Origin: a bacterium
GTDB taxonomy: Bacteria; Vulcanimicrobiota; Xenobia; Xenobiales; Xenobiaceae
Assembly: GCA_022839105.1 (NCBI GenBank)
Contig: JALHDH010000002.1
Location: 8,943 to 72,942 of the forward strand
Direction: 5' to 3'
DNA: 64,000 bases
Part shown: piece by piece, positions 17,675-53,512 of the stretch
How positions within the stretch are numbered: the stretch's first letter is position 1
Layout of the letters: each line of letters starts with the position of its first letter
The notes under the pieces: model-generated
Told to the model about the DNA's origin: nothing
The model's database searches: none
Seen by the model: only the letters and a program-made list of their open reading frames with translations
Made by a program: the position numbers and the translations under genes

Positions 17675-17704
17675 GCGCCCGGGCGACCCTCCGGGAGGGC
17701 AGGC

Positions 17705-22064: not shown

Positions 22065-25000
22065 TGAGGGTCCTGGGGATTTCCTGCTTCTATCACGACG
22101 CTGCGGCGGCTTTGCTGGTGGATGGGCACCTCGTCGCCGCGGCCGAGGAGGAGCGCTTCTCGCGGGTCAAGCACGACTGGGAGTTCCCTTCCCACGCGGT
22201 CCGGTTCTGCCTGGACCGGGCCGGGATCACCGGGGCCGACCTGGACCTGGTCGTCTTCTACGAGAAGCCCTTCTGGAAGTTCGACCGGATCCTGATGTCC
22301 ACCCTGGCCACCTGGCCCCGTTCGATGGTGGCCTTTCGGGAGGCCATGTTGGTCTGGCTCCTGGATAAGTTGTGGGCCCGGGATCTGCTCCAGGAGCGGA
22401 TCGGCTGCCAGCGGGATCGGATCGTCTTCTGTCCCCACCACATGTCCCACGCCGCCAGCGCCTTCTATCCTTCGGGGCTTGAGAAGTCCGCGATCCTGAC
22501 CGTGGACGGGGTGGGCGAGTGGGCCACCGGAACCCGGGGGACCGCCTGGGACCAGGAGATCCTCCTGGACGAGGAGATGCGCTACCCCCACTCATTGGGG
22601 TTGTTGTACAGCGCCTTCACGGCCTTCCTGGGCTTCCAGGTCAACGAGGGCGAATACAAGGTCATGGGCATGGCGCCCTACGGGCAGCCCCGCTTCGCGG
22701 ATCTGATCCTGGACAAGATGGTCCATCTGCGTCCGGACGGCTCCTTCCGCCTGGACATGGACTGCTTCGCCTACCACCACTCGGCCTTCCATTCCTTCAG
22801 CGAGCGCTTCGTCGAGTTGCTGGGGCCGGCTCGGACCCGGGAAGAGGCGAACCTCCTGGACCCCCACTATGCCGACGTGGCGGCCAGCATCCAGAAGGTT
22901 GCCGAGGAGATCCTGGTCCGACAGGCTTCCTGGCTGCACCGACGGACAGGGCACGAGGCCCTGTGCATGGCCGGAGGAGTCGCCCTGAACTCGGTGGCCA
23001 ACTCCCGGATCCTGCGCGAGTCGGGCTTCAAGAAGCTGTACATCCAACCCGCCGCCGGCGACGGGGGAGGTGCCCTGGGAGCCGCCCTCTGGGGCTACCA
23101 TCAGGTCCTGGGCGGGCGCGAACGTTTCCGGATGGATCACTGCTATTGGGGACAGGAACATTCCGACCAGGCCATCGCCGATTTCCTGCGCTCGGAAGGC
23201 CACGCCTACCAGGAATTCTCCGACCTGGAAGCGGTCCATTCGGAGGTGGCCGAACGCCTGGCCTGTGGACAGGTGGTGGGCTGGATGCAGGGGCGCTTCG
23301 AGTGGGGCCCTCGGGCCCTGGGCGCGCGCAGCATCCTGGCCGACCCCCGGGCGGCCCACATGAAGGACGTCGTCAACGCCCGGATCAAGTTCCGGGAGCC
23401 CTTCCGCCCCTTCGCACCCTCCGTTCTGGCCGAGCGGGTGGAGGATTACTTCGATCTTCCCGACGCGCCGGGGGTGGACCCGGCCCGCTTCATGCTGATG
23501 GTGGTCCCGGTCCGGCCCGATCGCCGGGACGAGATCCCCGCCGTGACCCACGTGGACGGCACCGCCCGCATCCAGGCCGTGCACCGGGAACAGAGTCCCG
23601 AATACCACGGGGTGATCTCGAGTTTCTGCCAGCTCACCGGGGTTCCGGTGGTCCTGAACACTTCGTTCAACCTGCGCGGCGAGCCCATCGTCAATACTCC
23701 TGCCGAGGCCTACTCGACCTTTGCCCGCTCGGACATGGATGCCCTGGTCATGGGCCGCTTCCTGGTCAGCCGCCGGGCGGCGGGTGAGGGGCGGCTGGTC
23801 CCAGGAGCGGAGCTGGAGAAGTGGGCCCACGCCCCCCAGAGGGTCTCTGGGACCGAGAACCGTCCAGAGTCCCGTCCGGCTCTTGCCGAGTCCGGTCACG
23901 GTCTTTTCGGAGTGCGCCCGGAAGAGTCGCCAGCCTCCGGCCCGAACGGCGTCTCACCGGCTTCGCTCCTGGGGAAGGTGGCGCTGGTCCTGCTGGCCAG
24001 CCTGGTCCTCCTGGAGATCCTGGTCCGCTTCCTGGTGCCCAATCCCAACATGCAGCTTCGCGGCATGTACCTCGAGGACGAGGAGGGAATCCGGCTTCGG
24101 CCGGGCTGGCAGGGCAGGATCCACAACGCGGAGTTCGACACCCGGGTCGAGATCGGTCCGGACGGCCGGCGGGATCTCCCCGAGCCCCCGCCGGACCCGA
24201 CGGCGACGGTCCTGGCCCTGGGGGATTCCTTCACCTTCGGCTGCTGGTCGGACTCCGACTCGACCTGGCTTGCCCGCCTGCAGCGAGCCGGCGGGGTCCG
24301 GGTCCTCAACGCCGGGGTTCCCAACGCGGGAACCGACGCCGAGGCGGCCTGGCTGCGCGGCCCGGGGGCCGGGATCCCGGCGGATCTGCTCCTGGTGGCC
24401 TTCTATACGGGCAACGACTTCCACGACAACCTGGTGGGACGGGACGCCTTCACCCTGGATTCCGGCTTCCTGGTGCTCAAGCCCGCCGCCGAGGCCCGTT
24501 GGAGCGGGTACGATTGTCTGGGGCGGACCCCTCCGCCCCGGACCGACCTGCCTCCAGATGCCCGCCGCCCCTGGTATCGCGGGGCTTTGATGCGCAGTCA
24601 CCTGTATCAGTATGTGCGTTCGCGGGTGTATGGGGGCACGCGTTCGGCCCTGCGCCCCTCCTTGCCCCAGGCCTGGTTCCTGCGCCGCTACACCCCCGAG
24701 ATGGAGCAGGCCCTGTTCAAGACCAACCAGCACCTCGACGACCTGCTGGCCCAGGCCAGATCGCGGGGGATTCCAATGGCCCTGGTTGTCATCCCCTCCT
24801 CCCAGGAGGTCTACGACGAGGAATGGCAGGCCTGGCTGGCGGCCTGGGAGCTGGAGGATGGGCTCTTCGATCGCTCCAGGCCGCGCCGCTTCCTGCTGGA
24901 CTGGGCCCGCCAGAGGAATGTGCCGGCCCTGGACCTGCTTCCATCGCTTCGGGGGCGGGAGCGTCTGTACTATCGGGCGGACATGCACTGGAATGACCTG

Positions 25001-25075
25001 GGCCACTTCCAGGCGGGTGAGAAGGTCGCGGAGTTCCTGCGCGAGCAGGGTCTTTCCGGAGAGGTGGGACGATGA
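22064..25075 (+). CDS. NodU/CmcH-family carbamoyltransferase fused via a TM helix to an AlgX/AlgJ-like SGNH (DHHW-type) domain
   Basis: 1003 aa. The N-domain starts MRVLGISCFYHDAAAALLVDGHLVAAAEEERFSRVKHD. The C-domain has HVDGTARIQAV and VVLNTSFNLRGEPIV. A TM segment is VALVLLASLVLLEILVRFLV. The SGNH blocks are LALGDSFTFGC, NAG, TGND and YYRADMHWNDLGH. The 455 codons upstream in the same ORF are antisense to the histidine kinase and were rejected. Confidence 0.8.
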   Translation: MRVLGISCFYHDAAAALLVDGHLVAAAEEERFSRVKHDWEFPSHAVRFCLDRAGITGADLDLVVFYEKPFWKFDRILMSTLATWPRSMVAFREAMLVWLLDKLWARDLLQERIGCQRDRIVFCPHHMSHAASAFYPSGLEKSAILTVDGVGEWATGTRGTAWDQEILLDEEMRYPHSLGLLYSAFTAFLGFQVNEGEYKVMGMAPYGQPRFADLILDKMVHLRPDGSFRLDMDCFAYHHSAFHSFSERFVELLGPARTREEANLLDPHYADVAASIQKVAEEILVRQASWLHRRTGHEALCMAGGVALNSVANSRILRESGFKKLYIQPAAGDGGGALGAALWGYHQVLGGRERFRMDHCYWGQEHSDQAIADFLRSEGHAYQEFSDLEAVHSEVAERLACGQVVGWMQGRFEWGPRALGARSILADPRAAHMKDVVNARIKFREPFRPFAPSVLAERVEDYFDLPDAPGVDPARFMLMVVPVRPDRRDEIPAVTHVDGTARIQAVHREQSPEYHGVISSFCQLTGVPVVLNTSFNLRGEPIVNTPAEAYSTFARSDMDALVMGRFLVSRRAAGEGRLVPGAELEKWAHAPQRVSGTENRPESRPALAESGHGLFGVRPEESPASGPNGVSPASLLGKVALVLLASLVLLEILVRFLVPNPNMQLRGMYLEDEEGIRLRPGWQGRIHNAEFDTRVEIGPDGRRDLPEPPPDPTATVLALGDSFTFGCWSDSDSTWLARLQRAGGVRVLNAGVPNAGTDAEAAWLRGPGAGIPADLLLVAFYTGNDFHDNLVGRDAFTLDSGFLVLKPAAEARWSGYDCLGRTPPPRTDLPPDARRPWYRGALMRSHLYQYVRSRVYGGTRSALRPSLPQAWFLRRYTPEMEQALFKTNQHLDDLLAQARSRGIPMALVVIPSSQEVYDEEWQAWLAAWELEDGLFDRSRPRRFLLDWARQRNVPALDLLPSLRGRERLYYRADMHWNDLGHFQAGEKVAEFLREQGLSGEVGR

Positions 25076-33843: not shown

Positions 33844-34388
33844 CCTGCTGGTTTCCTGCCAGCAGGGGAGTTCCCTTTGCCGCATTGGATTGGTCCTGGT
33901 TTCCCGGGTGTCTGAGATGGATCCAGGCCGCGGCGGCCTCACCCGGAATCGCTCGGGGGCCATCGCGGCTCTCATTGGAGGCATGTTTGCAGGAGAATGG
34001 GACCTCTCCCCCCGCCTGAATCCGGGCAGGACTTCGCCAAGAGAATCGAGAAGCGGATTCAGCCCCAGCTCGAGCCACCAGGGCTGTGCCCAATGGCATG
34101 GATTCGGGTCTTGTGTTGGATGCGGGGTGTCGGCAGGGTTCTGCGCTCAGTCTTGGTGCGCGCTCGGCGCATGGTTTCGTGTCCGCCTTTTCGGAACGCC
34201 GTGAATTCGGATGATCCGGATGGCGTCTGCAGGTCGTCTTGTGGGAGACAGGCAGGCCGGGCTGCTCCATTCATCTGGGACTCTCGGCTCAAGCTCTTGT
34301 TCACCGTGCGGAGGTGCCGGGTCTCCCGACGGGTCGAGCCCTTCTGCTCAGTTCAGTCCTTCGGGGTGATAAGAGGCCTGAGACCAGC

Positions 34389-35780
34389 GTGCTTTTCAAC
34401 TCTCTGGAATTCCTGGTCTTCCTGGTGGTGGTCTACGGCCTGTTCCTCGCAGTGCCCCGGAGGGGGAGAAGCTGGCTTCTGCTGGCCGCTTCCTGGTTCT
34501 TCTATGGTTATTGGAGCCTGAAGTTCCTCGGCCTCCTGGTGGCGACCACGGCCATCGACTGGTGGATCGGGTTGGCCCTGGAACACGCCCGGCCACCCCG
34601 CCGTCGCTTCCTGGTGTTTCTCAGCGTGGCGTTCAATCTGGGCCTGCTGGCGACGCTTAAATACTTCAACTTCTTCGCCGGTGAGTTCAGCCGGTTCCTG
34701 GCCCTGCTGGGGGTGGAAGTGCCCCTGCCCGTCCTGGAGTGTGTCCTGCCGGTCGGATTGTCCTTCTACGTTTTTCAGTCGATGGGATACACGATCGATG
34801 TTTATCGCGGGGCCCTGAAACCTACCAGGGATTTCTTCGTTTTTGCCTTGTTCGTCTCGTTCTTCCCACAATTGGTGGCCGGGCCTATCGAGCGGGCAGG
34901 AAATATGTTGGGTCAATTCGCCGCGAGTCCCGATTCGACCTCGGAACAGCGATCGCGGGGGTTCTACCTGATTCTGTGGGGCTATTTCAAGAAGGTCGTG
35001 GTCGCCGACAACCTGGCGCTCGTGGTTCAGGGGGTCTTTGACTCCCCGACGACAGCGGGTGGCTTCATGGTCTTGATGGCCACCTACGCCTTCACCCTTC
35101 AGATCTATTGCGACTTCTCCGGATATTCGGATATCGCCAGGGGCCTTGCGCGCTACTTCGGAATCGAGCTGATGGAGAACTTCAGGCTCCCCTTCTTCGC
35201 TGCTAATCCCCGAGATTTCTGGCACCGTTGGCATATCAGCCTCTCAACCTGGTTGCGCGATTATTTGTATTTCCCGTTGGGGGGAAGTCGGCTTGGAGCC
35301 ATCCGCACCGGTTTGAACCTCATGGTCACGACGCTGCTCTGCGGACTGTGGCACGGAGCCAATTGGACCTACGTGGCCTGGGGGGGATATCACGGCCTGG
35401 GATTGCTGGTCCACAGGCTGGTGCCGCCGCTGCGCCTGGGCTTCCTGGGGAAGCCATTCGCCTGGTTGGGCACCTTCCTCTTCGTCAGTCTTGGATTCCT
35501 GGTCTTCCGGGCGCACTCGCTGACGCAGGCGGGCGATCTGCTCGCCAGCGCGCTGAATTCGCCTTCACCTTGCCCCGGAGATTTCGGCGTCCTGCAACGA
35601 ATCGTGTTGCTGACCCTGCCGGTCTGGGCTCTCGAGACCCTTCAACTCCTGACTGGGGACCGGGAAGTCTTGCTGCGCCTGTGGCCACCGCTTCAATGTC
35701 TTCTGACGGCTGGTTTGCTGCTCGCAATCCTCATCCTGGGAGCGCCTGATGGCCGACCTTTCATCTATTTCCAATTCTAG
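34389..35780 (+). CDS. MBOAT-family membrane O-acyltransferase (AlgI/DltB-like)
   Basis: GTG start at residue 51 of ORF 34239. Motifs are VLFNSLEFLVFL, WHISLSTWLRDYLYFPLGGSR and WHGANWTYVAWGGYHG (the conserved His). The region has markedly lower GC. Confidence 0.75.
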   Translation: MLFNSLEFLVFLVVVYGLFLAVPRRGRSWLLLAASWFFYGYWSLKFLGLLVATTAIDWWIGLALEHARPPRRRFLVFLSVAFNLGLLATLKYFNFFAGEFSRFLALLGVEVPLPVLECVLPVGLSFYVFQSMGYTIDVYRGALKPTRDFFVFALFVSFFPQLVAGPIERAGNMLGQFAASPDSTSEQRSRGFYLILWGYFKKVVVADNLALVVQGVFDSPTTAGGFMVLMATYAFTLQIYCDFSGYSDIARGLARYFGIELMENFRLPFFAANPRDFWHRWHISLSTWLRDYLYFPLGGSRLGAIRTGLNLMVTTLLCGLWHGANWTYVAWGGYHGLGLLVHRLVPPLRLGFLGKPFAWLGTFLFVSLGFLVFRAHSLTQAGDLLASALNSPSPCPGDFGVLQRIVLLTLPVWALETLQLLTGDREVLLRLWPPLQCLLTAGLLLAILILGAPDGRPFIYFQF

Positions 35781-36711
35781 ATTCTTTCGATATCGCTGCA
35801 TGCGGGCTCGCAGGTTGTTCATGAGCTCGCTGCTGGCGCTGCTCGTCCTGGAATCGGCCGTCGTGCATCTTGGTTTCAGGTGGGACGATTTTCCTGCTCG
35901 TCTGGAGGACTTCAACTGGCGTCGGGCAAGCGAGGCGCCTGAGGTTGTCGTCCTCGGAACCTGCCTGTCGGTTGGCCTGCACCCGCGATTCCTGGAGTCG
36001 GAGTTGGGGGGAACGGCAAAGGTCTACAACCTGTCTCGCGGGGATACCTATGCCCTGAACTGGTATCTCCTGGCGATCAACCACGTGCTGAAGCGTCCGG
36101 GGGACCGGACGATTCTCATGGTGCATCATCCTTCGGAGCTTCTGACTCCCGTCGGCGCAAGCGAGGGGGAGGCGGTTGTCTTGGACCTGGCCTCCTGGTC
36201 GGACATGCCCCTTGTGCTCCGGATGGCCTCGGAGCCTGGGCGAAGCCCTCTCCATCTCCTGTTGGCGAAGATCTGGCGGACCTATCGATATCGACACTTC
36301 ATGGCTTCGGCCCTGTGGCAGGGCCTGGGCATCCAGGGCGCATTGCCCGACGAGGCTTCCCTCGAATTGCGCCCGGAGGCTCCCGCCACCAGGGCTGAGA
36401 GGCAGGCCCGGGCCCTGAATTGCCTCAAGCTCCTGCTGGATGCAGCCCACGAACAACAGACTCAGGTCTTCTTCGTTCCTTTGCCTGAGCGGAATTCTCC
36501 GAAAGCAGCGGGCGAGGACCGGGTGTGGCAGGCTGTCGCGCCTTTGGGCGCGAGCTTCCTGGATGTTCGGGAACAGGTTCCGGTGGCTCCCGGCGATTTC
36601 TGGACCAGCAGGCACATGACCGATCAGGGGAGCCAGAAGTTCTGTCGCGTCCTGGCCAGCGCTTTGAAACGCCACCTCAGCCTTGGGGCGGATGCCGCAT
36701 CCCGGCCATGA
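35749..36711 (+). CDS. Membrane-anchored periplasmic partner of the MBOAT (divergent AlgJ/DltD-like)
   Basis: 320 aa. A GGAG RBS precedes the ATG at 35749, which overlaps the MBOAT end by 32 nt (alternative ATG at 35800). It has one TM (MSSLLALLVLESAVV). The C-terminal FWTSRHMTDQG weakly resembles the DxxHW motif of AlgX/AlgJ. Confidence 0.45.
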   Translation: MADLSSISNSRFFRYRCMRARRLFMSSLLALLVLESAVVHLGFRWDDFPARLEDFNWRRASEAPEVVVLGTCLSVGLHPRFLESELGGTAKVYNLSRGDTYALNWYLLAINHVLKRPGDRTILMVHHPSELLTPVGASEGEAVVLDLASWSDMPLVLRMASEPGRSPLHLLLAKIWRTYRYRHFMASALWQGLGIQGALPDEASLELRPEAPATRAERQARALNCLKLLLDAAHEQQTQVFFVPLPERNSPKAAGEDRVWQAVAPLGASFLDVREQVPVAPGDFWTSRHMTDQGSQKFCRVLASALKRHLSLGADAASRP

Positions 36712-40954: not shown

Positions 40955-41044
40955 CGGCCCGGAGCTTGGTCACTGGGGCCCGGGTTCCTCCGCCCGATGG
41001 AGCGTTTCCTTGAGGCTCATCCGAAGCCCTGAGAGGTCACACCC

Positions 41045-42883
41045 ATGTATTCTGGAGCCCTGCAGGCGGCCATCGAGGCCGCACGTCTCGCCGGAGACCT
41101 CCTCCTGGCCGAGTTCTGCCGCCCGGGAGGCCCCCGAGGCAGCTCCGGGCACGCCCCCGCAGACGGCCAGGCCGAGGGGCTGATCGCCGAATTGCTGCTG
41201 GGTCGCTTCCCCGAGTGGGGTTTCCGTGGGGAGGAAAGGCCGGAGCTTCGTCGGGGCGGCGAGCACGTCTGGGTGGTGGACCCCAACGACGGAACCAGCG
41301 CCTGGCTCGAGGGCTGGCGAGGCAGCGCGGTCTCGATCGCCCTGGTGCATCGGGGGCGTCCGGTGCTGGGTGTGGTGCATGCCTTCGCGGTGGGGGAGGG
41401 CGACCTCTTCGCCTGGGCTGAAGGCTGCGGTCCCGTGCTCCGCAATGGCGTCCCCCTGATCGCTCGGAGCTGGCCCGAGACCCTCTCGAATCGGGATGTG
41501 GTCCTGGTCTCCCAGCACGCCGACCATCGAGCCGGGTTCAACGCCCGGGCCGTCGCTCCGGCCCGCTTCCGGGCCGTTCCGGGAATCGCCTGGAGGCTGG
41601 CCCTGGTGGCGGCCGGGGAAGGGGCGGCGGCGGTCTCGCTCTCGGGTCCGGGCGACTGGGACTATGCGGCCGGGCACGCCCTGCTGCGCGGAGCGGGGGG
41701 AGACCTCTACGACGAGGCGGCCAGGCCCGTCGGTTACGATTCCCAGGGGCGCAGTTCCCTTGCGCGCTGCTTCGGAGGCTCCCAGCCCCTGGCCCGCGAG
41801 CTGGCTGGCCGGGACTGGAGCCTGGGTCCACCCCGGCCCTCCTCCCTGTGCTGGCCCTCACGAGGGCGCATCCTGACCGATCGGGGCCTCCTGGCCCGAG
41901 CCCAGGGGGTCCTGCTGGGGCAGGTCGCGGGAGATTCGCTGGGCAGCCTGGTGGAATTCTTGGACCCGGAGCAGATCCGGCGCCGTCATCCGGAAGGAGT
42001 CCGGGAACTGGCCGACGGGGGGACCTGGAACACGCTGGCAGGACAGCCGACCGACGATTCAGAGATGGCCCTGGCCCTGGCCCGGTCGATCCTGGCTTCG
42101 GGAGGGTGGTCTTCGAGTGCGTCGGCCTGGGCCTACGGGGCCTGGCTCCGCTCCGGGCCCTTCGATGTCGGGAACACGACCCGGACGGTCCTGGGCGGCC
42201 TCGGTGAGGACCATTCTCCCGAAGAGGCCGAGGGGATCTGCCGGGAGGCAGCGCTGCGGGTGGCCCGGCAGGGGGGGCAGGCCAATGGTTCGCTGATGCG
42301 GATCAGTTCGCTGGGGATCTTCGGGCATGCCCTGGAAACCGAGGTGCTGGTGGAGATGGCCCGCCGGGAGAGCGCCCTGACCCACGCCCATCCCGTCTGC
42401 GCGGATGCCTGCGCGGCCTTCGTGCTGGCCATCGCCTTCGCCTTGCGCACCGGCGGGGCGCCTCGGGAGGTCTGGGAGGTGGCCCGGGACTGGGCCCGCG
42501 AGCACGCCCACCCCGACGTGCTGGAGACGCTCGAGGCCGCCGACCAGGGGCCGCCGGCCCGCTTCACCACGCAGCAGGGCTGGGTCCGGACCGCCTTGCA
42601 GAACGCCTTCTATCGGTTGCTTCACGCCGGGAGCCTGGAGCAGGGCGTGGTGGAGACGGTGGCATGCGGGGGGGATACCGACACCAACGCGGCCATCGCG
42701 GGGGCCTTGCTGGGCGCCGTGCACGGACGCCAGGCGATCCCGAAAGGGTGGGAGGAGGCCGTCCTGACCTGCCGGGCGCTTCCTCCGGCTCCTCATCCGC
42801 GTCCCCAGGAGTACTGGCCGGTGGACGGGCTCATCCTGGCCGAGAACCTGGCGGTCCTGGGCCAGGAGGCGGCTTCGGACTGA
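41045..42883 (+). CDS. Fusion of an inositol-monophosphatase/CysQ-fold phosphatase with an ADP-ribosylglycohydrolase (ARH/DraG-like)
   Basis: 612 aa. The N-part has WVVDPNDGTSAW (DPxDGT) and WDYAAGHALL (WDxAAG). The C-part has GQVAGDSLGSLVEF, LMRISSLGIF and GGDTDTNAAIAGALLGA. Confidence 0.7.
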   Translation: MYSGALQAAIEAARLAGDLLLAEFCRPGGPRGSSGHAPADGQAEGLIAELLLGRFPEWGFRGEERPELRRGGEHVWVVDPNDGTSAWLEGWRGSAVSIALVHRGRPVLGVVHAFAVGEGDLFAWAEGCGPVLRNGVPLIARSWPETLSNRDVVLVSQHADHRAGFNARAVAPARFRAVPGIAWRLALVAAGEGAAAVSLSGPGDWDYAAGHALLRGAGGDLYDEAARPVGYDSQGRSSLARCFGGSQPLARELAGRDWSLGPPRPSSLCWPSRGRILTDRGLLARAQGVLLGQVAGDSLGSLVEFLDPEQIRRRHPEGVRELADGGTWNTLAGQPTDDSEMALALARSILASGGWSSSASAWAYGAWLRSGPFDVGNTTRTVLGGLGEDHSPEEAEGICREAALRVARQGGQANGSLMRISSLGIFGHALETEVLVEMARRESALTHAHPVCADACAAFVLAIAFALRTGGAPREVWEVARDWAREHAHPDVLETLEAADQGPPARFTTQQGWVRTALQNAFYRLLHAGSLEQGVVETVACGGDTDTNAAIAGALLGAVHGRQAIPKGWEEAVLTCRALPPAPHPRPQEYWPVDGLILAENLAVLGQEAASD

Positions 42884-47319: not shown

Positions 47320-47345
47320 CGAAAAGGCCCGCGCGTCGGCGGGCC
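47320..47345 (-). terminator. Rho-independent terminator after the DUF350 gene
   Basis: Stem GGCCCGC/GCGGGCC with a 6-nt loop. On the minus strand it is followed by TTTTCG. Confidence 0.45.
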
Positions 47346-47393: not shown

Positions 47394-47654
47394 TCAGGGT
47401 GTCCCGGGGGGCACGGGCACGATCGAGGTCCCCTGGTGCAGGACGGAGGCGACCACGATTCCGAAGGCCAGGATCACCGCAGCCATCACGATGGCCACGG
47501 CCACGTTCCCCTTCTTGAGTTCCTCCCATTCGTCCACGCGGGGGGTCATCTTGTCCCAGACGAACATCAGGATGCCCATGGACAGGCTCATGGCCACGGA
47601 GGCCACCAGGGCCCAGACCAGGGTTTTGAGGATGTCGACCCACTCACCAGTCAT
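47394..47654 (-). CDS. DUF350-family small membrane protein, 86 aa
   Basis: GAGGAAGG RBS. Sequence MTGEWVDILKTLVWALVASVAMSLSMGILMFVWDKMTPRVDEWEELKKGNVAVAIVMAAVILAFGIVV. The remainder of the 647-aa ORF was rejected. Confidence 0.6.
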   Translation of the reverse strand: MTGEWVDILKTLVWALVASVAMSLSMGILMFVWDKMTPRVDEWEELKKGNVAVAIVMAAVILAFGIVVASVLHQGTSIVPVPPGTP

Positions 47655-47800
47655 CAGCGTCTTCACCTTCCTCGCAGGCCCGTATTCCGGGCGTTCTGGA
47701 GTCCTCGGCCTCAGGCAGGCCGGACCCGCGCTCCTGGCGCCATTTTCGTGCCCGCCCCCCTGGTCCCTGGCAGTCGGGTCGAAATCGGGCGACTCCCGCG

Positions 47801-49420
47801 CTACAGGGAGGAATCGAAGGGCAGATTCCGGGCCGCGAGCACCTCCTGTGCGGCTCGGACTCCCTGGTATTGGGCCTCCTCGAAGATCGACAGGCCCGAG
47901 AGGTCGGAGTGGGCGAAGTGGATCCGGCCTTGGGGGAGGGCCGCCAGAGGGCGCTCGGATCCCCAGATCAGTCCGGGAACCGGACGGACCATCGCGTGTC
48001 CCAGGACCATCATGTCCAGGCGTCGGAGCCGTTCGGGCAGATCCGGGTGGACCGGGGCCAGGTCCGCTAGAACCTCGTCCCGGAAGCTCTCCCAACTCCT
48101 CCCCAGCAGTCCCCAGCGGACCTGTGAGGGTTCCTCGGTGAAGGAGCGATACCAGGTCAAGACCGTCGGCCCCCCGGGCCGGGCGGCCAGACCCTGGTGC
48201 GTGGCCACCACGTAACCCAGCGACTTCGAGTCGTGGATCACGTTGTCCCAGCTCAGGGGGAAGCCATGCCCCGGGTCTGGAGCCCGGTCCATGACCAGGT
48301 TGGCCACCACCCAGGGACAGGCGGTGAACGAGCGGAAGGCCGGACTCCCCGGCAGGACCCGGGGGCGCAGGAAGGCGGGCAGCGCGCAGATCACCCGATC
48401 GGCCTTCAGGCGGACCGGCTCTTCCCGGGCCAGATCCAGGTAGTCCACCTCGACCCCGTCGCTCGCTTCGGCGATCCGGTAGACCAGCGCTCCGGTGGTC
48501 AACCTCGGCCCCACGCGATCCAGAAGGGCGCGGGCCAGCCAGCCGTTCCCCTCGGGCCAGGTGAAGAGGGCCCCGGCTGGTCCGGCCCGGTCCGGCGAGC
48601 GGCTGGCGAAGTAGTGCAGCCCGGCCCAGGCCGAGGTGGTCTCCAGGCAGGTGCCGTAGTCGTCGCGGCAACCGTATTCCACGTGCCAGCGAAGCCGTTC
48701 GGAGGTCCAACCCTGCATCGCCAGGTACCGGGACATGGAGATCCGATCCAACTCCCGGGCCTCGGTCGAGGAGCGATCCACCGGGATGGCAAAGGCCCGG
48801 CGGCCCTGACGATCCCGGCGGGACTGCCAGCGCTCGATCTCGGCGTAGAAGGCCCGGGTCTGGCGCAGGTCGTCGGGGCTCGCGCCCAGGTGGGGATAGA
48901 GCCCCTCCTCCCAGCGTCCGAGCTGGTAGAGCCGCTCTTCGGGGGCGTGGCACAGGTGGCGCTCGTCGTAGATCGGCTCGCCGGAGGGGTTCCAGCCTCG
49001 CACCAGGCCCAGGTCCTCGAGCAGTTCCAGGGTGGCTCGGGCCTCGCGGGTGGGCACGGGCAGGTAGTGGGCGGCCCAGGGGGCCCTGGATTCCGGATAC
49101 TCGGCGAATCGGCAGTTGCCGCCGGCCTGGTCCTCCATCTCCAGGATTCGGAAATCCTCCAGGCCTTCCCGAGCCAGCTTCCAGGCCGCGCCGAGACCGG
49201 CCACCCCGCTCCCCAGGATCGCCACGTCGACGCGTTCCCGGCGGGTGGGGGAGGTTCGAGGCGGGGCGAAGACTCCGTGCCCCCGGCGCTCGGCGCTGCC
49301 GATCAGCCGGCCGGGCAGATCGCGGCGCCGGCTGCATCCCGAGGCAGCCAGCAGGGCGCCTCCAACCCCCAGTCCGGCCAGGAAGCCGCGTCGGCCGATC
49401 ACTCGATCACAGCCCGCCAT
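47801..49420 (-). CDS. Tat-exported FAD-dependent amine-oxidase-family oxidoreductase (possible lipoprotein)
   Basis: 539 aa. The signal is RRGFLAGLGVGGALLAASGC (twin-Arg plus lipobox-like). The FAD fold is VAILGSGVAGLGAAWKLAREG...LEMEDQAGGNCR. An alternative GTG at 49402 would give a GTGA overlap with the spermidine-synthase stop. Confidence 0.65.
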   Translation of the reverse strand: MAGCDRVIGRRGFLAGLGVGGALLAASGCSRRRDLPGRLIGSAERRGHGVFAPPRTSPTRRERVDVAILGSGVAGLGAAWKLAREGLEDFRILEMEDQAGGNCRFAEYPESRAPWAAHYLPVPTREARATLELLEDLGLVRGWNPSGEPIYDERHLCHAPEERLYQLGRWEEGLYPHLGASPDDLRQTRAFYAEIERWQSRRDRQGRRAFAIPVDRSSTEARELDRISMSRYLAMQGWTSERLRWHVEYGCRDDYGTCLETTSAWAGLHYFASRSPDRAGPAGALFTWPEGNGWLARALLDRVGPRLTTGALVYRIAEASDGVEVDYLDLAREEPVRLKADRVICALPAFLRPRVLPGSPAFRSFTACPWVVANLVMDRAPDPGHGFPLSWDNVIHDSKSLGYVVATHQGLAARPGGPTVLTWYRSFTEEPSQVRWGLLGRSWESFRDEVLADLAPVHPDLPERLRRLDMMVLGHAMVRPVPGLIWGSERPLAALPQGRIHFAHSDLSGLSIFEEAQYQGVRAAQEVLAARNLPFDSSL

Positions 49421-50895
49421 TCGGAGTCGTAGTAGCGGACCAGGACCTGGTTGAAAAGGTGGTTGACCTCGACGGGCAGGGGTTGGAGATCCGCCGGAAA
49501 CTCGAACATCGCCGCGCAGGTCGAAGGCGTCAGGAAGCGTTCCCCTCGGGCCTGGGGGATGGGGACCTCGCTCAAGGTCACCAGGCAGAAGCCCCACTCT
49601 CCGAAGGATGGCACGTAGGCGTGGTAGGGGCGGACCTGGAAACCCACGTCGGCCAGGGTTTCGATGATGCACCAGAAGGAACGCCGGGCAAACATCGGGG
49701 AGGTGCACTGGATCGCGCAGGCCCCGTCGGGGGTCAGGTGGGCTCGCAGCCTGCGAAAGAAGGTCGTGGTGTAGAGCTTTCCGACCGAGAAGTTGCTGGG
49801 GTCGGGGAAGTCCACCAGGATCAGGTCGTACAGGCCCGGGTTCTCCTCCAGCCAGATGAAGGCATCCTGGTTGACCACCTTCACGCGGGGGGAATTCAGG
49901 GAGCCCTCGTTGAGACGCGTCAGGAGCGGGTGGGTGGCGAAGGCCCGGGTCATCTCGGGGTCCAGATCGACCAGGGTGATCGACTCCACCCGGGCGTCGC
50001 GCAGGACTTCGCGGGCGGCCAGGCCGTCGCCTCCGCCCAGGATCAGGACCCGACGGGGATTCGCCGCGCTGGCCAGGGCGGGCTGGACCAGGGCCTCGTG
50101 GTAGCGGTACTCGTCCTCGGAGGAGAACTGCAGGTTGTTGTTCAGATACAGGCGGAAATCGTCCCGATGGCGCGTCAGGACCATCCTCTGGTAGGGGCTG
50201 TCTCGGGTCAGGATGATCTCGTCGGAATACAGCGCCTCTTCCGAGAGTCGGGTGATGTGCTCGGAGGCGGCGAAGCACCCGGTCAGGGCCAGCGCCGCCA
50301 GGACGGCCTGGACCCGCAAGGACCCCCGGGAGGGCAGACCGGTCCTCATGACATGCAGGAAGACCAGGGCCACGCCCACGTTGATCAGGCCGAAGAAGCA
50401 GGCGGTCCGGATCAGGCCCAGATAGGGGACCAGGATCAGCGGGAAGAGGACCGAGGCCAGCAGCGCGCCGATATAGTCCAGGGCCAGCACCTGCGAGACC
50501 AGGTCGCGGAACTCCAGCCGATCCTTGAGGATCCTCAGGATCAGGGGGATCTCCAGCCCTACCAGCATCCCGATCAGGAAGACCATGAGATACAGGAGCA
50601 CCCGGAAGGCTCCCGCCGAGGCGTAGCTGAAGGTCAGGAAGAGCAGGGGGGCCGAGAACCCGCCCAGCAGGCCGACCAGGATCTGGAGTTGGATGAATCG
50701 GGCCACCAGACCCCGGACCACGAACTTTGAGAGCCACGAACCCACCCCCATGGCGAAGAGGTAGGTCCCGATGATCGTCGAGAACTGCAGGACCGAGTCT
50801 CCCAGCAGATAGCTGGCCAGGGTTCCGGCCAGCAATTCGTAGACCAGCCCGCATGTCGCGATGACGAAGACCGACAGCAGGATCAACTGCGGCAT
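49399..50895 (-). CDS. Membrane-anchored spermidine-synthase-family aminopropyltransferase (multi-TM N-domain)
   Basis: 7-8 TM helices, then VLILGGGDGLAAREV and LYDLILVDFPDPSN. Confidence 0.75.
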   Translation of the reverse strand: MPQLILLSVFVIATCGLVYELLAGTLASYLLGDSVLQFSTIIGTYLFAMGVGSWLSKFVVRGLVARFIQLQILVGLLGGFSAPLLFLTFSYASAGAFRVLLYLMVFLIGMLVGLEIPLILRILKDRLEFRDLVSQVLALDYIGALLASVLFPLILVPYLGLIRTACFFGLINVGVALVFLHVMRTGLPSRGSLRVQAVLAALALTGCFAASEHITRLSEEALYSDEIILTRDSPYQRMVLTRHRDDFRLYLNNNLQFSSEDEYRYHEALVQPALASAANPRRVLILGGGDGLAAREVLRDARVESITLVDLDPEMTRAFATHPLLTRLNEGSLNSPRVKVVNQDAFIWLEENPGLYDLILVDFPDPSNFSVGKLYTTTFFRRLRAHLTPDGACAIQCTSPMFARRSFWCIIETLADVGFQVRPYHAYVPSFGEWGFCLVTLSEVPIPQARGERFLTPSTCAAMFEFPADLQPLPVEVNHLFNQVLVRYYDSEWRAVIE

Positions 50896-50907
50896 GGGCG
50901 TTCGGGC

Positions 50908-51081
50908 CTATTTGCCGCGGAAGCCGACGGCGTAGAAGCTCCGGTAGGCAGCCGGGTTGTTGCGGATGTTCGCGGGGGCGTTGGGCAACTGGTCGACCGG
51001 GGTGGGCGACCAGCCGACGAACTGGATCCAGAAGAGCCCTGCCAGGGCGCCGGTTCCCAGGATTCCGTAGAGGAGGTTCAT
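50908..51081 (-). CDS. Unlisted 57-aa membrane mini-protein upstream of the spermidine-synthase gene
   Basis: GGAG RBS 6 nt upstream of the ATG. Sequence MNLLYGILGTGALAGLFWIQFVGWSPTPVDQLPNAPANIRNNPAAYRSFYAVGFRGK. The stop lies 12 nt before the next start. Confidence 0.4.
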   Translation of the reverse strand: MNLLYGILGTGALAGLFWIQFVGWSPTPVDQLPNAPANIRNNPAAYRSFYAVGFRGK

Positions 51082-51103
51082 CTTCGTCTCCGTGCCAGAC
51101 TGA

Positions 51104-53074
51104 TCAGGAGTCCTCAGGGGCGTGATCGCTTTCCAACCAGCGCTTCTGTTCGAAAGAAGCGGAGCGGATCCACACCAGGATCGGATGGAGCACCAGGATG
51201 GCCATCAAGAACCAGAAGTAGCTCCAGGAGGGGACGTCCCGGGTCAGGCGGACACCGTACTTCAGGACCGGCCTGCCCGCCGTGGGGCCCTTGGCCGAGA
51301 GGTTCTCGGGGTTGTTCCCCGTGCCGGTCTGGGGTTCGAGCCTCAGGACATAGGTGCCTGAGGGCACCGAGGGGATTGTGATCTCTTCGCTCCTGCTGCC
51401 TTCCCTCCAGCTCTCGCCTCCCGAGGTTCCGTGGTAGAAGCTGACGGCCTTCGAGAAGACCCGGGCCTCCCGGGTCTCCTCGTGGATCAGGGCCATGTCG
51501 AAGAAGGCCCAACGGTTGTCCACGTCGGTCTGGAGGCGGACCACCAGGTTCGCGGTCCGCCCTTCCAGCTTGAAGGGCCGGGTCACCACGCTGGGTTCCT
51601 CTCCCTGCACGGCCACGAAGTCCTGGGTGTAGACCGGGGCCTGGGCCGAGAAGAGCGAGAAGCCGATCATCATCAGGAAGCCGACCAGGAAGAAGACCGC
51701 ATACTGCATCCAGGCATTCTTCAGCATGCCGGCCAGGGGCGAGGGCTGATTGGCTCCCACCCCGGTGCGCTCGGGCGGCCTTCCGGGCAGGCCGAAGGCG
51801 CTCCAGACCTCTTCGGGTTCCAGGTAGCGGCCCAGGGACCAGGTCATCCCGTCGGAGGTGACCTCGGCCGAGAGGATCCCGGGCGGACAGACGTAGTCGT
51901 GCAGGCCCGCCGAGTCCTCGACCTGGACCTTCCAGGGGAACTCGCCCACGACGTAGGCGACCTTTCCGGTGGCGGACTGGAAGTGCTTGAACTTGCGACC
52001 GCCCAGCATCAGGAAGTCCTGGGGAGGCCAGCCGTGGACGGGTCGCCCGTCCGAGGCCGTGGGCAATTCGTGCAGGGGGGCCACCCAGGTCCAGTGGCCG
52101 GAGGACTCCACCAGGTAGCGATAGCCCCGTTCCCGGTTGTGGCAGACGTACTCGCTCCAGTAGTAGTCGACACCTTCGATCCGGACGAAGCGGCGCTGGA
52201 AGCCCAGGCATTCCCAGGTTGCCCCGTCCAGCTTCCCCTTGGTGCCCAGGGGGATTCCGGGTTCCTCCTTGCGGGCCTTCTGGGACTTCCACAGCAGGCC
52301 ATAGGTGGGGTCGGTCAGGTCGATGCCGGCGTCGCAGAAGGAGCAGACCAGGGTCTGGCTGCGCGGGCCTCCGGCTAGTTCGTGGGGGGCTCCGCAACTG
52401 GGGCAGCGCAGGACCCGGGTCGCGGCGGCCGAGCGGCTCTCGATCGCCTCCTCAGGATCGCGCAGTCCCTTGAGCTGCAACTCTTCGAAGTCGCGGAAGG
52501 CGCCCACGAAGAGCAGGGGCTGGTCCTCGGAGTAGTCCAGGGTGGCCGCGGTCCTCCCCGACGAGCGCAGATCCGCGTAGGGCAGATCGTACTCCGTGCT
52601 CATCACGAAGGGGAGCTCTCCCTGGAAGGAGACGACCCGGGCCTGGGCCAGGTTGGTGACCACCAGTTCGCGGGAGCCGACGCGCAGCGCCTTGCCCACG
52701 TGCAGGTCGGCGAAGCCCGGCAGGGATTGGGGATCGGTCTGGGCCAGGGAGGAGACGAAGTACTCGCCCATCGCTTCGCCCAGCCAGCCCTGTCGGCCGT
52801 CCTGGAATTCCAGGAACCATTCGTTCCAGTAGCCTTCCGGGTGGTGGATCTGGATCCGGCCCAGGACCTCGAAGGCCGCCCCGTCAAAGACCCCGGTGGT
52901 GCCGACCCGGATGGGGGTTCCATCGGGTTGGACATCGGCCACCTTGCCCAGAAGCTCGATGTCCACGTCGTGGCGGACCAGCAGGGAAAGACACGAGGAA
53001 CACGTGGAGTAGACCGAGCTCTCGGAGCGGAAGCGGACGGCGTCGCCGCATGAGGGGCAAGCGATTTCGAGCAC
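51104..53074 (-). CDS. Duplicated zinc-ribbon + DUF4178-like protein with two C-terminal TM helices
   Basis: 656 aa. It has two CPSCG...CS(S/F)C pairs, then DGATWECLGFQRRFVRIEGVDYYWSEYVCHNRERGYRYLVESSGHWTWV. TM helices are at WMQYAVFFLVGFLMMIGFSLF and WSYFWFLMAILVLHPILVWI. Confidence 0.6.
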   Translation of the reverse strand: MLEIACPSCGDAVRFRSESSVYSTCSSCLSLLVRHDVDIELLGKVADVQPDGTPIRVGTTGVFDGAAFEVLGRIQIHHPEGYWNEWFLEFQDGRQGWLGEAMGEYFVSSLAQTDPQSLPGFADLHVGKALRVGSRELVVTNLAQARVVSFQGELPFVMSTEYDLPYADLRSSGRTAATLDYSEDQPLLFVGAFRDFEELQLKGLRDPEEAIESRSAAATRVLRCPSCGAPHELAGGPRSQTLVCSFCDAGIDLTDPTYGLLWKSQKARKEEPGIPLGTKGKLDGATWECLGFQRRFVRIEGVDYYWSEYVCHNRERGYRYLVESSGHWTWVAPLHELPTASDGRPVHGWPPQDFLMLGGRKFKHFQSATGKVAYVVGEFPWKVQVEDSAGLHDYVCPPGILSAEVTSDGMTWSLGRYLEPEEVWSAFGLPGRPPERTGVGANQPSPLAGMLKNAWMQYAVFFLVGFLMMIGFSLFSAQAPVYTQDFVAVQGEEPSVVTRPFKLEGRTANLVVRLQTDVDNRWAFFDMALIHEETREARVFSKAVSFYHGTSGGESWREGSRSEEITIPSVPSGTYVLRLEPQTGTGNNPENLSAKGPTAGRPVLKYGVRLTRDVPSWSYFWFLMAILVLHPILVWIRSASFEQKRWLESDHAPEDS

Positions 53075-53212
53075 GGCGCCATGCCCATTCCCTCATTCCG
53101 ACGGGATTCCCTCCTGGCCTGAACCGAGGACTCGGCGGACGGAGCGCGAATCTGGGGGGGGAGTGCGAGTCGGACGGGTTCGCATCCCGGCAGCGGAGAG
53201 GCGGTCGAAGGC

Positions 53213-53512
53213 ATGGTTGCGGTTCATTTCCTGGTTCCGGTGGTCATGCTCGCCTTGTGGATGCTGTTGGGCATGGCCGAGGAACGGGTCCATTCGACCC
53301 ATCTCGGCTTCTGGATTCGGGGGCTGCGGGGAGGGACCCTGGGCCTGGTCTTCTGTGCCTTGGGGGCGGTGGGTCTGGCCCATGTCCAGACGGCCATCCC
53401 CGCCGAATCACGAACCTTCGTCTTCATCGCCTTGCTCCTGGCGCTGGGCATGATCGGCTTCCCGATCGGCTTTCTGGGCGCCATGGCCAGGGGAAGGCGC
53501 TCCGAGGACTGA
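53213..53512 (+). CDS. Hypothetical 3-TM membrane protein
   Basis: 99 aa and hydrophobic. It lies in the gap between the DUF4178 gene and dapA. The RBS is weak. Confidence 0.35.
   Translation: MVAVHFLVPVVMLALWMLLGMAEERVHSTHLGFWIRGLRGGTLGLVFCALGAVGLAHVQTAIPAESRTFVFIALLLALGMIGFPIGFLGAMARGRRSED

Follow-up and report, generated by a model that had tools for sequence, protein, structure and literature searches.

Why is an enzyme of the spermidine-synthase type with a membrane domain of its own encoded directly beside a flavin amine oxidase with an export signal, and do the small membrane proteins encoded around them belong to the same system? This question was addressed for a gene cluster in a window of 64,000 nucleotides (the whole stretch of DNA analysed) from contig JALHDH010000002.1 of a member of the Xenobiaceae (assembly GCA_022839105.1). 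The five minus-strand ORFs of the original prediction were all present in the ORF listing, confirming the cluster, which with its flanking elements comprises the following features.

53075..53212, no strand assigned: divergent intergenic region of 138 nt, bounded by the DUF4178 gene and, on the plus strand, a 99-aa membrane ORF
51104..53074, minus strand: 656-aa membrane protein with two tandem modules, each a CxxC..CxxC Zn-ribbon plus DUF4178 (ORF, Pfam, hydropathy); GTG start at 53074, stop at 51104
50908..51081, minus strand: 57-aa single-pass microprotein (ORF, alignments)
49399..50895, minus strand: 498-aa membrane aminopropyltransferase, "synthase" below (NCBIfam PRK03612, Pfam PF01564, AlphaFold2 model)
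47801..49420, minus strand: 539-aa FAD protein with amine-oxidase fold, twin-arginine signal and lipobox, "oxidase" below (Pfam, AlphaFold2, Foldseek)
47655..47800, minus strand: intergenic spacer of 146 nt between oxidase and DUF350 genes (sequence, comparison with the close relative L081)
47394..47654, minus strand: 86-aa two-TM DUF350 protein, a YjfL-type half unit (Pfam PF03994)
47326..47345, minus strand: intrinsic-terminator-like hairpin, GGCCCGCCGACGCGCGGGCC then TTTTCGTGGA, with seven G-C pairs followed by TTTTCG, closing the cluster before glnA

Gaps of −22 to +22 nt had been claimed throughout. The measured spacings are 22 nt (DUF4178 gene to mini ORF), 12 nt (mini ORF to synthase), −22 nt (overlap of synthase and oxidase) and 146 nt (oxidase to DUF350), so that the claim holds for three junctions and fails for the last only. 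A terminator proposed at 47320-47345 was recovered as the hairpin listed above. The divergent region at the other end is, from its position, presumed to be the promoter region of the cluster; no sigma-70 consensus was found in it. The small divergent ORF beyond it is also present in L081.

The gene order was compared in 65 loci of GTDB species representatives with enough flanking sequence, for which partner counts are lower bounds. The 7-TM synthase has the DUF4178 gene directly upstream and the oxidase gene directly downstream in at least 36 of them. Only the DUF4178 gene accompanies it in nine and only the oxidase in five; 15 loci, mostly Betaproteobacteria, have neither. The 36 full-order loci span Acidobacteriota, Gemmatimonadota, Verrucomicrobiota, Elusimicrobiota, Actinomycetota and Proteobacteria; the co-occurrence on which the original prediction had been staked is conserved in other lineages, in the same order and in many phyla. 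Synthase and oxidase genes overlap in 25 of 37 loci, by 1-32 nt, and in four more are no further than 6 nt apart. No conserved gene follows the oxidase and the module therefore ends there. Independent gene calls with Pfam gave the same order in Elusimicrobiota, a metagenome contig and a Xenobium relative (the oxidase of the metagenome contig carries the name Nitrosotenuis in one source). Because dozens of unrelated genomes carry these genes in this order, the cluster is more than chance, and this comparison of sequences supports the view that the five genes form a unit, with co-occurrence conserved across phyla. The module is widespread in bacteria and was probably spread horizontally.

The synthase scored 652.6 bits against NCBIfam PRK03612 (cut-off 472) and 111 bits against Pfam Spermine_synth PF01564. 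Seven or eight TM helices had been expected; hydropathy and the AlphaFold2 model (pLDDT 88.6) gave seven (residues 2-31, 34-58, 63-91, 94-124, 129-159, 161-182 and 190-209), with a catalytic domain of the spermidine/thermospermine-synthase type C-terminal to them (~213-498). The predicted motifs GGGDG (287-291) and DFPDP (362-366) are both present and invariant in the family, and DLD and D344 are kept as well, so the motifs for catalysis and for decarboxylated AdoMet (dcAdoMet) are intact. The acid residue of GGGDG argues for the use of dcAdoMet and says nothing on the acceptor. Among solved structures, thermospermine synthase (6bq2) and T. thermophilus SpeE (1uir) are the nearest, each at E 1e-42. 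Identity is 55-64% across phyla, the TM domain being conserved as strongly as the catalytic domain, and because invariant polar residues (E20, D33, Q37, E115, D140, Y141, N172) lie inside it, the TM domain is more than a mere anchor.

Mean K+R counts in loops 2-3, 4-5 and 6-7 were 2.8, 3.5 and 2.5, as opposed to 0, 0 and 1.4 in the other loops, and the positive-inside rule would accordingly place the catalytic domain outside the cytoplasm (predicted N-in/C-out). Decarboxylated AdoMet is not known to exist there, which makes the predicted location a puzzle. A precedent is the fungal 7-TM methyltransferase NHMT, which shares the 7TM plus SpdS-fold architecture, acts on the non-cytoplasmic side, where it modifies a protein N-terminus, and needs its TM domain for activity (PMC10349129), although this TM domain has no detectable homology with that of the synthase (hhalign E 0.022, catalytic core only).

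The N-terminus of the oxidase, MAGCDRVIGRRGFLAGLGVGGALLAASGC, contains a twin-arginine motif, a hydrophobic region and a lipobox (RRGFLAG...LAASGC), in agreement with the export signal predicted before (RRGFLAG...ASGC). The RR motif was found in 31 of 36 homologues and the lipobox in only 11; acidobacterial hydrophobic regions are short. In Pfam the protein reaches only NAD_binding_8 and stays below the threshold of Amino_oxidase PF01593, which relatives at 74-84% identity do match; weak partial matches to PigB, HpnE and CrtD/CrtI were also seen (Pfam/NCBIfam). With the AlphaFold2 model (pLDDT 88.3), the best Foldseek matches were 8p84/9h5p (putrescine-binding MAO), 2yg3 (putrescine oxidase), MAO-A/B and the spermidine dehydrogenase SpdH 7d9i, at E 1e-25 to 1e-22. 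Amine oxidases or dehydrogenases account for all of the best 47 fold matches, two of which bind putrescine or spermidine, with protoporphyrinogen oxidase (PPO) about four orders of E-value behind at 1e-21. The fold is nearest to putrescine and monoamine oxidases and spermidine dehydrogenase and not to desaturases, the identity that had been named as fatal to the predicted link with amines. In the oxidase family the position of the MAO aromatic-cage Tyr435 aligns to Ile/Leu and many acidic residues are invariant. The predicted core of the module is an aminopropyltransferase with seven TM helices whose translation is coupled to that of a lipid-anchored flavin amine oxidase exported by the Tat route.

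Three membrane proteins accompany this core: the Zn-ribbon/DUF4178 protein, a microprotein of ~60 aa and DUF350. The microprotein, foreseen as a mini membrane ORF, has a single predicted TM helix at its N-terminus and a tail of the form P-x-x-x-R-x-N-P...Y-R-S-x-Y with an invariant C-terminal Lys (G23, P36, R40 and K57 are invariant in alignments). A profile search retrieved 3,139 clusters at E≤1e-3, all of 60-63 aa and all labelled 'hypothetical', and no Pfam family was found for the microprotein or for these clusters. All of the 120 best clusters end in GGK; the copy in the window ends in RGK. The net charge of the helix flanks is +0.9 on both sides, leaving the orientation ambiguous, and that of the whole tail is +3.3, which favours a cytoplasmic tail. 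The microprotein was undetected in verrucomicrobial and several proteobacterial loci that keep the other four genes.

For the 656-aa protein, the two tandem modules and two TM helices of the original prediction were found again. DUF4178 matched in two stretches with 97 bits in Pfam, CxxC pairs occur at residues 6/25 and 224/244, and hydropathy indicated TM segments at ~454-481 and ~616-641. Both modules are presumed cytoplasmic; a segment of ~135 aa between the helices is extracytoplasmic and a short acidic tail ends the protein. Zn-ribbons were found in 98 of 99 homologous ORFs, and in many genomes the gene is split into genes of ~210 and ~430 aa. A sequence search for a relative of solved structure returned none.

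In the hands of Li and colleagues, related membrane fusions of SpdSyn reportedly failed to produce spermidine in E. coli; the same group reportedly had already flagged the core of such gene clusters bioinformatically. Membrane-stress neighbourhoods with a link to polyamines do repeatedly contain DUF350 and DUF4178 (Ravi et al. 2024, PMC11237479), as the original prediction had suggested; for its B. subtilis ydj parallel to DUF4178 the same authors give Zn-ribbons and an NTF2-like domain instead. The claim of a cluster with no assigned function and no known pathway was half right, the core having been flagged bioinformatically by Ravi et al., and that of a synthase making a polyamine is not supported; for 'aminopropylation of other substrates' these authors point to Li et al. 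2019. Operons of a related type, wired to PspA or to AdoMet decarboxylase, were noted by Ravi et al. 2024 (PMC11237479) and reportedly also by Li et al. 2019. A scan of ~40 window ORFs turned up neither an AdoMet decarboxylase nor PspA, nor any other polyamine gene. The wider kind of operon is already known; new here is its PspA-less, oxidase-containing form. In two large genomes the same synthase-oxidase pair adjoins a PspA-CesT/Tir-K+ channel-DUF350-DUF4178 operon.

The earlier interpretation as a whole is partly supported. The reading we prefer, with a probability of about one half, is an envelope module in which aminopropyltransferase and exported oxidase make and then oxidise an amine product at the outer face of the membrane. 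The membrane enzyme would transfer an aminopropyl group from dcAdoMet to an amine acceptor that its conserved, acid-lined TM domain either holds or lets through. The product, a polyamine resembling spermidine or thermospermine or else an aminopropylated amine of the envelope, would arise on the outer side of the cytoplasmic membrane. There the oxidase may oxidise it, to remove or remodel it, and the local steady state would tune membrane charge and stability. The accessory proteins would scaffold or sense, the same genes elsewhere being wired to PspA-CesT/Tir membrane-stress systems.

The same core could instead write and erase a mark, the 7-TM enzyme aminopropylating a protein or lipid amine (the C-terminal Lys of the microprotein or phosphatidylethanolamine) and the flavin oxidase removing it by N-C oxidation. 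LSD1 removes methyl-lysine marks in this way, and LSD1/KDM1 chains are among the sequence-profile matches of the oxidase family. The constant adjacency of the microprotein family and its invariant Lys, the substrates alluded to by Ravi et al. (PMC11237479), the NHMT precedent (PMC10349129) and a predicted topology with the catalytic domain on the side of the Tat oxidase fit this proposal. We nevertheless regard it as rather unlikely: the microprotein's tail charge, with ambiguous orientation, favours the cytoplasmic side, some loci with the other four genes lack a detectable copy, the NHMT TM domain is not detectably homologous and GGGDG is silent on the acceptor. A plainer arrangement, a membrane-tethered spermidine (or thermospermine) synthase with an oxidase for catabolism or back-conversion (homeostasis or nitrogen scavenging) and unrelated neighbours, agrees with the NCBIfam equivalog 'polyamine aminopropyltransferase' scoring above its cut-off, the intact catalytic motifs and glnA as the next gene downstream, here as in L081. 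It is unlikely, as synteny of the accessory genes, with tiny gaps or overlaps, extends across phyla, glnA is a lineage-specific neighbour that is absent from other loci examined, the TM domain holds invariant polar residues and predicted export separates the oxidase from cytoplasmic polyamine pools.

That the flavoprotein is a desaturase, a PPO-like or another GR2-family enzyme, and the cluster product unrelated to amines, seems very improbable. The Pfam/NCBIfam match to the dinucleotide-binding module only, the weak partial matches and the PPO hit point that way, but the leading fold matches, the PF01593 matches of close relatives and the constant coupling to an aminopropyltransferase gene speak against it, as does the Tat signal, which is atypical of carotenoid or haem-pathway desaturases. 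Long spurious ORFs are common at 68% GC, yet the real frames have a GC3 of 0.79-0.89 and every gene has same-order homologues in dozens of genomes, low-GC ones included. Chance juxtaposition or mis-calling of ORFs is therefore a virtually negligible explanation, already refuted by the conserved gene order.

DUF350 (56.5 bits against PF03994, cut-off 26, profile positions 3-72 of 133) lies between mini ORF and synthase in canonical loci. In the window and in L081 it has been relocated to the 3' end, behind the long gap, and its tight packing was not borne out. The 146-nt spacer has no Rfam match. It shares 76% identity with its 129-nt counterpart in L081; blocks of sequence and a ribosome-binding site, GAGGAAGG, are conserved between the two. 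The spacer may hold an internal promoter or processing site.

Five co-directional genes were found on the minus strand of the window at 47394-53074, confirming from the ORF list what the original prediction had described. They are given below from 5' to 3' on their own strand, with the hairpin that follows them.

Features of the five-gene cluster in the window
53074 to 51104, minus strand, GTG start: DUF4178 protein, from the ORF list and DNA reading
51081 to 50908, minus strand: microprotein ORF, from the ORF list and DNA reading, nothing in Pfam or NCBIfam
50895 to 49399, minus strand: membrane aminopropyltransferase (synthase), with Spermine_synth (PF01564) and PRK03612
49420 to 47801, minus strand, ATG start: flavoprotein (oxidase), with an N-terminal dinucleotide-binding module in Pfam and NCBIfam
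47654 to 47394, minus strand, ATG start: DUF350 protein, Pfam PF03994
47345-47326, minus strand: hairpin of seven G-C pairs followed by TTTTCG, ending the unit ahead of glnA

The hairpin corresponds to the terminator that had been proposed for the cluster. Spacings of -22 to +22 nt had also been proposed; these hold for the first three junctions (+22, +12 and an overlap of 22 nt), but the oxidase and DUF350 genes are 146 nt apart. The GC3 of the five frames (0.79-0.89) matches that of other real genes in the window, of which the overall GC content is 68%. The best database matches were with ‘Candidatus Xenobium’ at 88% identity, a genus of the Vulcanimicrobiota, formerly Eremiobacterota; a look-up of gene context for the exact sequence of the window synthase gave no record. 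Housekeeping genes flank the cluster, with glnA, rapZ and a CofD-like gene downstream and dapA, aroA, aroE and aroK upstream, past a divergent ORF of 99 aa. This hydrophobic ORF (53213-53512, plus strand), for which no Pfam family was found, may share a promoter region with the cluster; at L081, the homologous locus of a close relative, an ORF of 105 aa (7369-7686) occupies the same place.

Among about 40 further ORFs scanned in the window, none encoded an AdoMet decarboxylase, PspA, CesT/Tir, arginine decarboxylase or other polyamine protein. No promoter was found with the sigma-70 consensus, which is uninformative for the host phylum. The Rfam scan of the whole 64-kb window (1-64000) returned zero families at gathering score, and a regulatory RNA in the 146-nt spacer, which is moderately conserved relative to L081, or elsewhere in the window was rejected. 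A role in anti-phage defence was also rejected, as PADLOC returned just generic partial matches.

The synthase scored 652.6 bits against PRK03612 (‘polyamine aminopropyltransferase’, cut-off 472) and 111.1 bits against PF01564 (cut-off 22.9). Both motifs on which a spermidine-synthase domain had been proposed, GGGDG and DFPDP, were present and conserved: G287-G-G-D290-G291 is invariant in 30 homologues, and D362-F-P-D365-P366, D310/D312 (DLD) and D344 are fully or almost fully conserved, in colinear alignment with 6bq2 and 1uir. The acidic residue of GxG(D/E)G selects decarboxylated AdoMet (dcAdoMet) (PMC10349129). By its whole-protein score and its dcAdoMet and catalytic motifs, the synthase is assigned at sequence level to the aminopropyltransferase family. 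Its closest solved relatives are thermospermine synthase ACL5 (6bq2) and Thermus thermophilus SpeE (1uir), both with an E-value of 1e-42. About 225-250 residues of the catalytic domain align with the soluble aminopropyltransferases, with every dcAdoMet and catalytic motif kept. Whereas ACL5, SpeE and the spermidine synthases are cytoplasmic and soluble, the window domain is fused to a conserved seven-helix membrane domain and encoded together with an oxidase predicted to be exported.

In the AlphaFold2 model of the synthase (pLDDT 88.6), seven long helices (2-31 through 190-209) precede the catalytic domain. Helix 7 is poorly conserved in sequence yet consistently hydrophobic (median KD19 1.92), a pattern that would suit a lipid-facing transmembrane helix. 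Seven residues of the membrane domain are invariant (E20, D33, Q37, E115, D140, Y141 and N172), which suggests that this domain is more than an anchor.

For the oxidase, a flavin amine oxidase had been predicted, of which the fold was borne out while a match to PF01593 was not obtained for the window protein, even at E≤10. At that same threshold, the Pfam matches were limited to NAD_binding_8, DAO and FAD_binding_2 at the N-terminus, although relatives at 74-84% identity carry a precomputed PF01593 match. Over 5,000 clusters belong to the family at E≤1e-5, none with a functional name. An AlphaFold2 model was obtained with a pLDDT of 88.3, low at the N-terminus, and the first 47 Foldseek matches in the PDB were all amine oxidases or dehydrogenases (E 4e-25 to 8e-22). 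The best matches were the Thermoanaerobacterales MAO with putrescine (8p84/9h5p), putrescine oxidase PuO (2yg3), MAO-A/B and SpdH of Pseudomonas aeruginosa (7d9i). The two-domain FAD fold is shared with these enzymes at TM-scores of 0.60-0.65 by query and 0.58-0.77 by target and E-values of 1e-25 to 1e-22, but the identity to known amine-oxidase structures is just 14-21%. The family differs from MAO, PuO and SpdH by invariant motifs of its own (GH..R, RDDYG, WPEGN, WDNV, HQ and FEEA) and by a Tat/lipoprotein signal. The position of MAO-B Tyr435 is taken by Ile or Leu in the HMM alignment, beside an invariant F513.

The twin-arginine signal and lipobox ascribed to the oxidase were both recognized in its N-terminus, which reads GRRGFLAG, a hydrophobic region of 15 residues and AASGC, and would direct the protein to the outer face of the membrane; that of L081 reads RRQFLA..LLAGC. 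Of 36 homologues, 31 carry the motif (S/T/N/D)RRxF(L/I), and 11 have a lipobox, including those of the window (AASGC) and of L081 (LLAGC).

The microprotein has an N-terminal transmembrane helix followed by a tail N-V-P-K-S-V-R-D-N-P-G-A-Y-R-S-x-Y...G-G-K, in which P36, R40 and the C-terminal lysine are invariant, as is G23. A profile search gave 3,139 clusters, all of 60-63 aa, without Pfam family and labelled ‘hypothetical’; the best 120 of these all end in GGK. No description of the family was found in the literature searched. The DUF350 protein (PF03994, YjfL family) scored 56.5 bits (cut-off 26) over profile positions 3-72 of 133, and represents a half unit with two transmembrane segments. 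In the DUF4178 protein, PF13785 scored 97 bits (cut-off 25) in two stretches, the better of which (residues 276-420) spans positions 2-136 of the 136 in the profile. The protein has CxxC pairs at 6/25 and 224/244 and hydrophobic segments at about 454-481 and 616-641, and 98 of 99 homologous ORFs encode zinc ribbons. No relative with a solved structure was found by sequence search.

The conservation of the cluster was assessed by a pattern scan in which each GTDB species was represented by a single genome. At least 594 synthase relatives were confirmed, placing the module in hundreds of species of at least eight phyla. The enzymes are unusually conserved, the synthase being 55-64% identical to proteins of Competibacteraceae, Bryobacteraceae, Armatimonadota, Elusimicrobiota, Wallbacteria and others. 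Eighty loci were kept, and their neighbours were sought by tblastn and with iterated HMMs derived from the window proteins; 65 loci had enough flank to be scored, and the neighbour counts are lower bounds. DUF4178 upstream and the oxidase downstream of the synthase were found in at least 36 of the 65 loci, across phyla; the expectation that these families also co-occur in other lineages thus held. DUF4178 was the sole partner in nine loci and the oxidase in five, while 15, mostly from Betaproteobacteria, had neither. The canonical order is DUF4178 (either one gene for about 650 aa or two for about 210 and 430 aa), microprotein, DUF350, seven-helix synthase and oxidase. It was found in Acidobacteriota, Gemmatimonadota, Verrucomicrobiota, Elusimicrobiota, Acidimicrobiia and several Proteobacteria, and was also seen in independent gene calls with precomputed Pfam matches. 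At the window and the 82%-identical L081, DUF350 has been relocated to the 3' end, behind a spacer of 129-146 nt.

Among 37 loci that could be evaluated, the synthase stop and the oxidase start overlap by 1-32 nt in 25 and are no more than 6 nt apart in four others; the 22-nt overlap of the window recurs in eight of these loci. This arrangement points to conserved translational coupling. No conserved gene was found after the oxidase across 51 loci, and a cytochrome c acceptor as general partner was rejected since a CxxCH-rich or other conserved follower is absent from them. At the Bryobacteraceae locus L082, a Cytochrom_C552-like multihaem gene (12999-14060) overlaps the end of the oxidase gene, which hints at an electron acceptor of the dehydrogenase type.

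In two large genomes, the synthase-oxidase pair adjoins a divergent operon of PspA, CesT_Tir, a K+ channel (RCK), DUF350 (280 aa), a protein of unknown family (264 aa) and a short DUF4178 protein of about 180 aa (L085, 8916-13645; L086, 8987-13677). This ties the module to membrane-stress systems of the PSP type. At L085, synthase and oxidase are separated by three inserted genes, two for DNA methyltransferases and one without annotation. A betaproteobacterial variant with a full-length DUF350 of 133 aa, a Band_7/SPFH-SHOCT protein and a DUF4178 protein of 643 aa was observed at L013 (Dechloromonas, 171-3546), L030, L037, L040 and L073. At L013 and L073, a stretch of about 6 kb containing several unannotated ORFs separates these genes from the synthase downstream, and at L030, L037 and L040 the DUF4178 gene immediately precedes the synthase. 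L001, from a low-GC relative in the Eremiobacterota, has a divergent microprotein (9743-9925, …VRNNRSSHHGFYYYHFTGK) missed by the HMM and a more divergent oxidase, and an adjacent DUF350 is absent.

Fusions of a membrane (MFS-like) domain with a spermidine synthase were reportedly described in 2019 by Li, Kurihara, Kim, Liang and Michael as co-occurring with functional class 1b AdoMet decarboxylase and DUF350. These fusions are said not to make spermidine, and an acceptor other than putrescine was reportedly proposed; coupling to an oxidase is reportedly not part of that description. The window synthase resembles them in its membrane domain, its spermidine-synthase-like domain and its DUF350 neighbour, and it matches NCBIfam NF037959 (‘fused MFS/spermidine synthase’) colinearly with 62 bits. 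Its best model, however, is PRK03612 (652 bits) rather than NF037959, and unlike in those fusions an AdoMet decarboxylase was not found nearby.

The core of the module is already present in the literature. The SO_3765 operon of Shewanella oneidensis consists of the Ctha_1186 lipoprotein, YjfL, 7TM-Spermine_synth, CesT/Tir, PspA, DUF4178 and RHH (group two of Ravi et al. 2024, mSystems, PMC11237479), and DUF4178 appears in that study alone in the literature searched. The seven-helix spermidine-synthase protein, DUF350 and DUF4178 are thus found in one operon both there and in the window. The Shewanella operon differs by its dyad of PspA and CesT/Tir (DUF2170) and its RHH regulator, none of which were found among the window ORFs scanned. 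The lone lipoprotein-like gene of the window cluster is the oxidase, with no further ORF at 47394-53074 to correspond to Ctha_1186. The window adds the Tat-signal amine oxidase and the microprotein of about 60 aa, and has a doubled, zinc-ribbon-bearing DUF4178 protein with two transmembrane helices and a DUF350 half unit.

[quoted passage not shown] 2024, PMC11237479). Those of the Escherichia coli yjfIJKLMC type (group three of Ravi et al.) contain the PspA homologue YjfJ, the DUF350 protein YjfL and the glutathionylspermidine-synthetase-like ATP-grasp protein YjfC. Like the window, they combine DUF350 with polyamine-modifying enzymes in a membrane-stress context, but the polyamine enzyme is a ligase instead of an aminopropyltransferase, and DUF2491, DUF1190, DUF4247 and DUF2617 occur where the window has DUF4178 and the microprotein. 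The PspA systems were proposed to monitor polyamines or ‘aminopropylation of other substrates’ (PMC11237479). What is new here is a compact, PspA-free and oxidase-containing form of this polyamine-linked envelope module, a minimal unit of five genes in which an oxidase predicted to be exported is a constant and apparently translationally coupled partner of the synthase.

The orientation of the synthase was predicted from the charges of its loops. In 30 homologues, the mean number of K+R was 2.8, 3.5 and 2.5 for loops 2-3, 4-5 and 6-7, against 0, 0 and 1.4 for loops 1-2, 3-4 and 5-6, and the 20 residues past helix 7 are acidic. With seven helices, the positive-inside rule thus predicts the N-terminus inside and the catalytic domain outside, probably on the same side as the Tat-exported oxidase. 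As dcAdoMet originates in the cytoplasm, such a position would pose a concrete topology paradox. A precedent is offered by the fungal ER protein NHMT (Aspergillus nidulans AN4663), in which a seven-helix domain of about 215 aa is followed by a Rossmann domain of the spermidine synthase family (Batth et al. 2023, PMC10349129). NHMT requires its membrane domain for activity and methylates the N-terminal histidine of secreted LPMOs, a substrate found solely on the non-cytoplasmic side (PMC10349129). The two proteins have the same architecture and resemble each other in charge pattern, both the N-terminus and loop 2-3 being positive. NHMT, however, has Ile in place of the GxG(D/E)G acid and uses AdoMet, whereas the window synthase has Asp in GGGDG. 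In hhalign, the synthase matched AN4663, rebuilt from supplementary DNA with masked blocks, in the catalytic core alone (E 0.022, probability 2%). On these two grounds an NHMT-type protein methyltransferase was rejected, and NHMT is regarded as an analogue rather than as an established homologue.

The genes and their order, the conservation, the intact motifs, the fold and the export signal are established, whereas all that concerns substrates and physiology is inferred. At roughly one chance in two, the module would combine membrane-bound aminopropyl transfer with extracytoplasmic amine oxidation and thereby control how much of a polyamine-like or aminopropylated envelope amine is present on the outer side of the membrane. 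The accessory proteins would serve as scaffolds or sensors, and PspA is connected to the module in other genomes. The original prediction, in which an enzyme making a polyamine and an enzyme oxidizing amines are co-expressed at or beyond the membrane, is supported in part. Membrane-tethered but ordinary polyamine housekeeping would agree with the intact aminopropyltransferase motifs; it appears rather unlikely, given the predicted export of the oxidase and the synteny of the accessory genes across phyla. That the flavoprotein is something other than an amine oxidase would agree with the missing PF01593 match, but is improbable with protoporphyrinogen oxidase first appearing at rank 48 of the Foldseek matches. 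A chance juxtaposition of the genes is hardly credible beside the gene order retained between phyla.

A system that writes and erases a mark on a protein or lipid, perhaps on the terminal lysine of the microprotein, is conceivable but doubtful; the invariant lysine speaks for it. In its most specific form, which we consider unlikely, a periplasmic catalytic domain, predicted from the positive-inside rule and the seven confident helices, would be supplied with dcAdoMet through the membrane, the conserved acid-lined transmembrane domain carrying this cationic donor across. Synthase and oxidase would then be an extracytoplasmic pair for aminopropylation and de-aminopropylation of a protein or lipid amine, with the ...GGK lysine as prime candidate. 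If true, NHMT would have its bacterial counterpart in this pair, which would represent a novel type of post-translational modification in the envelope. The unnamed microprotein family, with its invariant terminal lysine, is a candidate partner or substrate. The module bears on a problem put forward by Li et al. 2019 and by Ravi et al. 2024, namely what membrane-bound spermidine-synthase-like enzymes aminopropylate and how polyamine chemistry connects to membrane-stress (PSP) systems.

Several other genes were observed. Four genes downstream of the cluster, L081 encodes a fusion of AA_kinase, ACT and Orn/DAP/Arg-decarboxylase domains (17351-19921, 856 aa), absent at the corresponding place of the window, which could be a LysC-LysA fusion or a relative of the aspartate-semialdehyde polyamine route. 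On the plus strand of the window, a carbamoyltransferase of 1,115 aa fused to SGNH/AlgX-like domains (21728-25075) was found, as well as an ORF at 34239-35780 that, from reading of the WHISLSTWLRDYLYFPLGG stretch, appears to resemble an MBOAT/AlgI-type acyltransferase. The latter and the ORF beside it (35749-36711, plus strand) are located in the part of the window with the lowest GC content and strongest AT skew, and all three may be polysaccharide-modification genes. An inositol-monophosphatase/ADP-ribosylglycohydrolase fusion (41033-42883, plus strand) and a separate Macro-domain protein (4429-5148, minus strand) suggest ADP-ribose handling, unrelated to the module.
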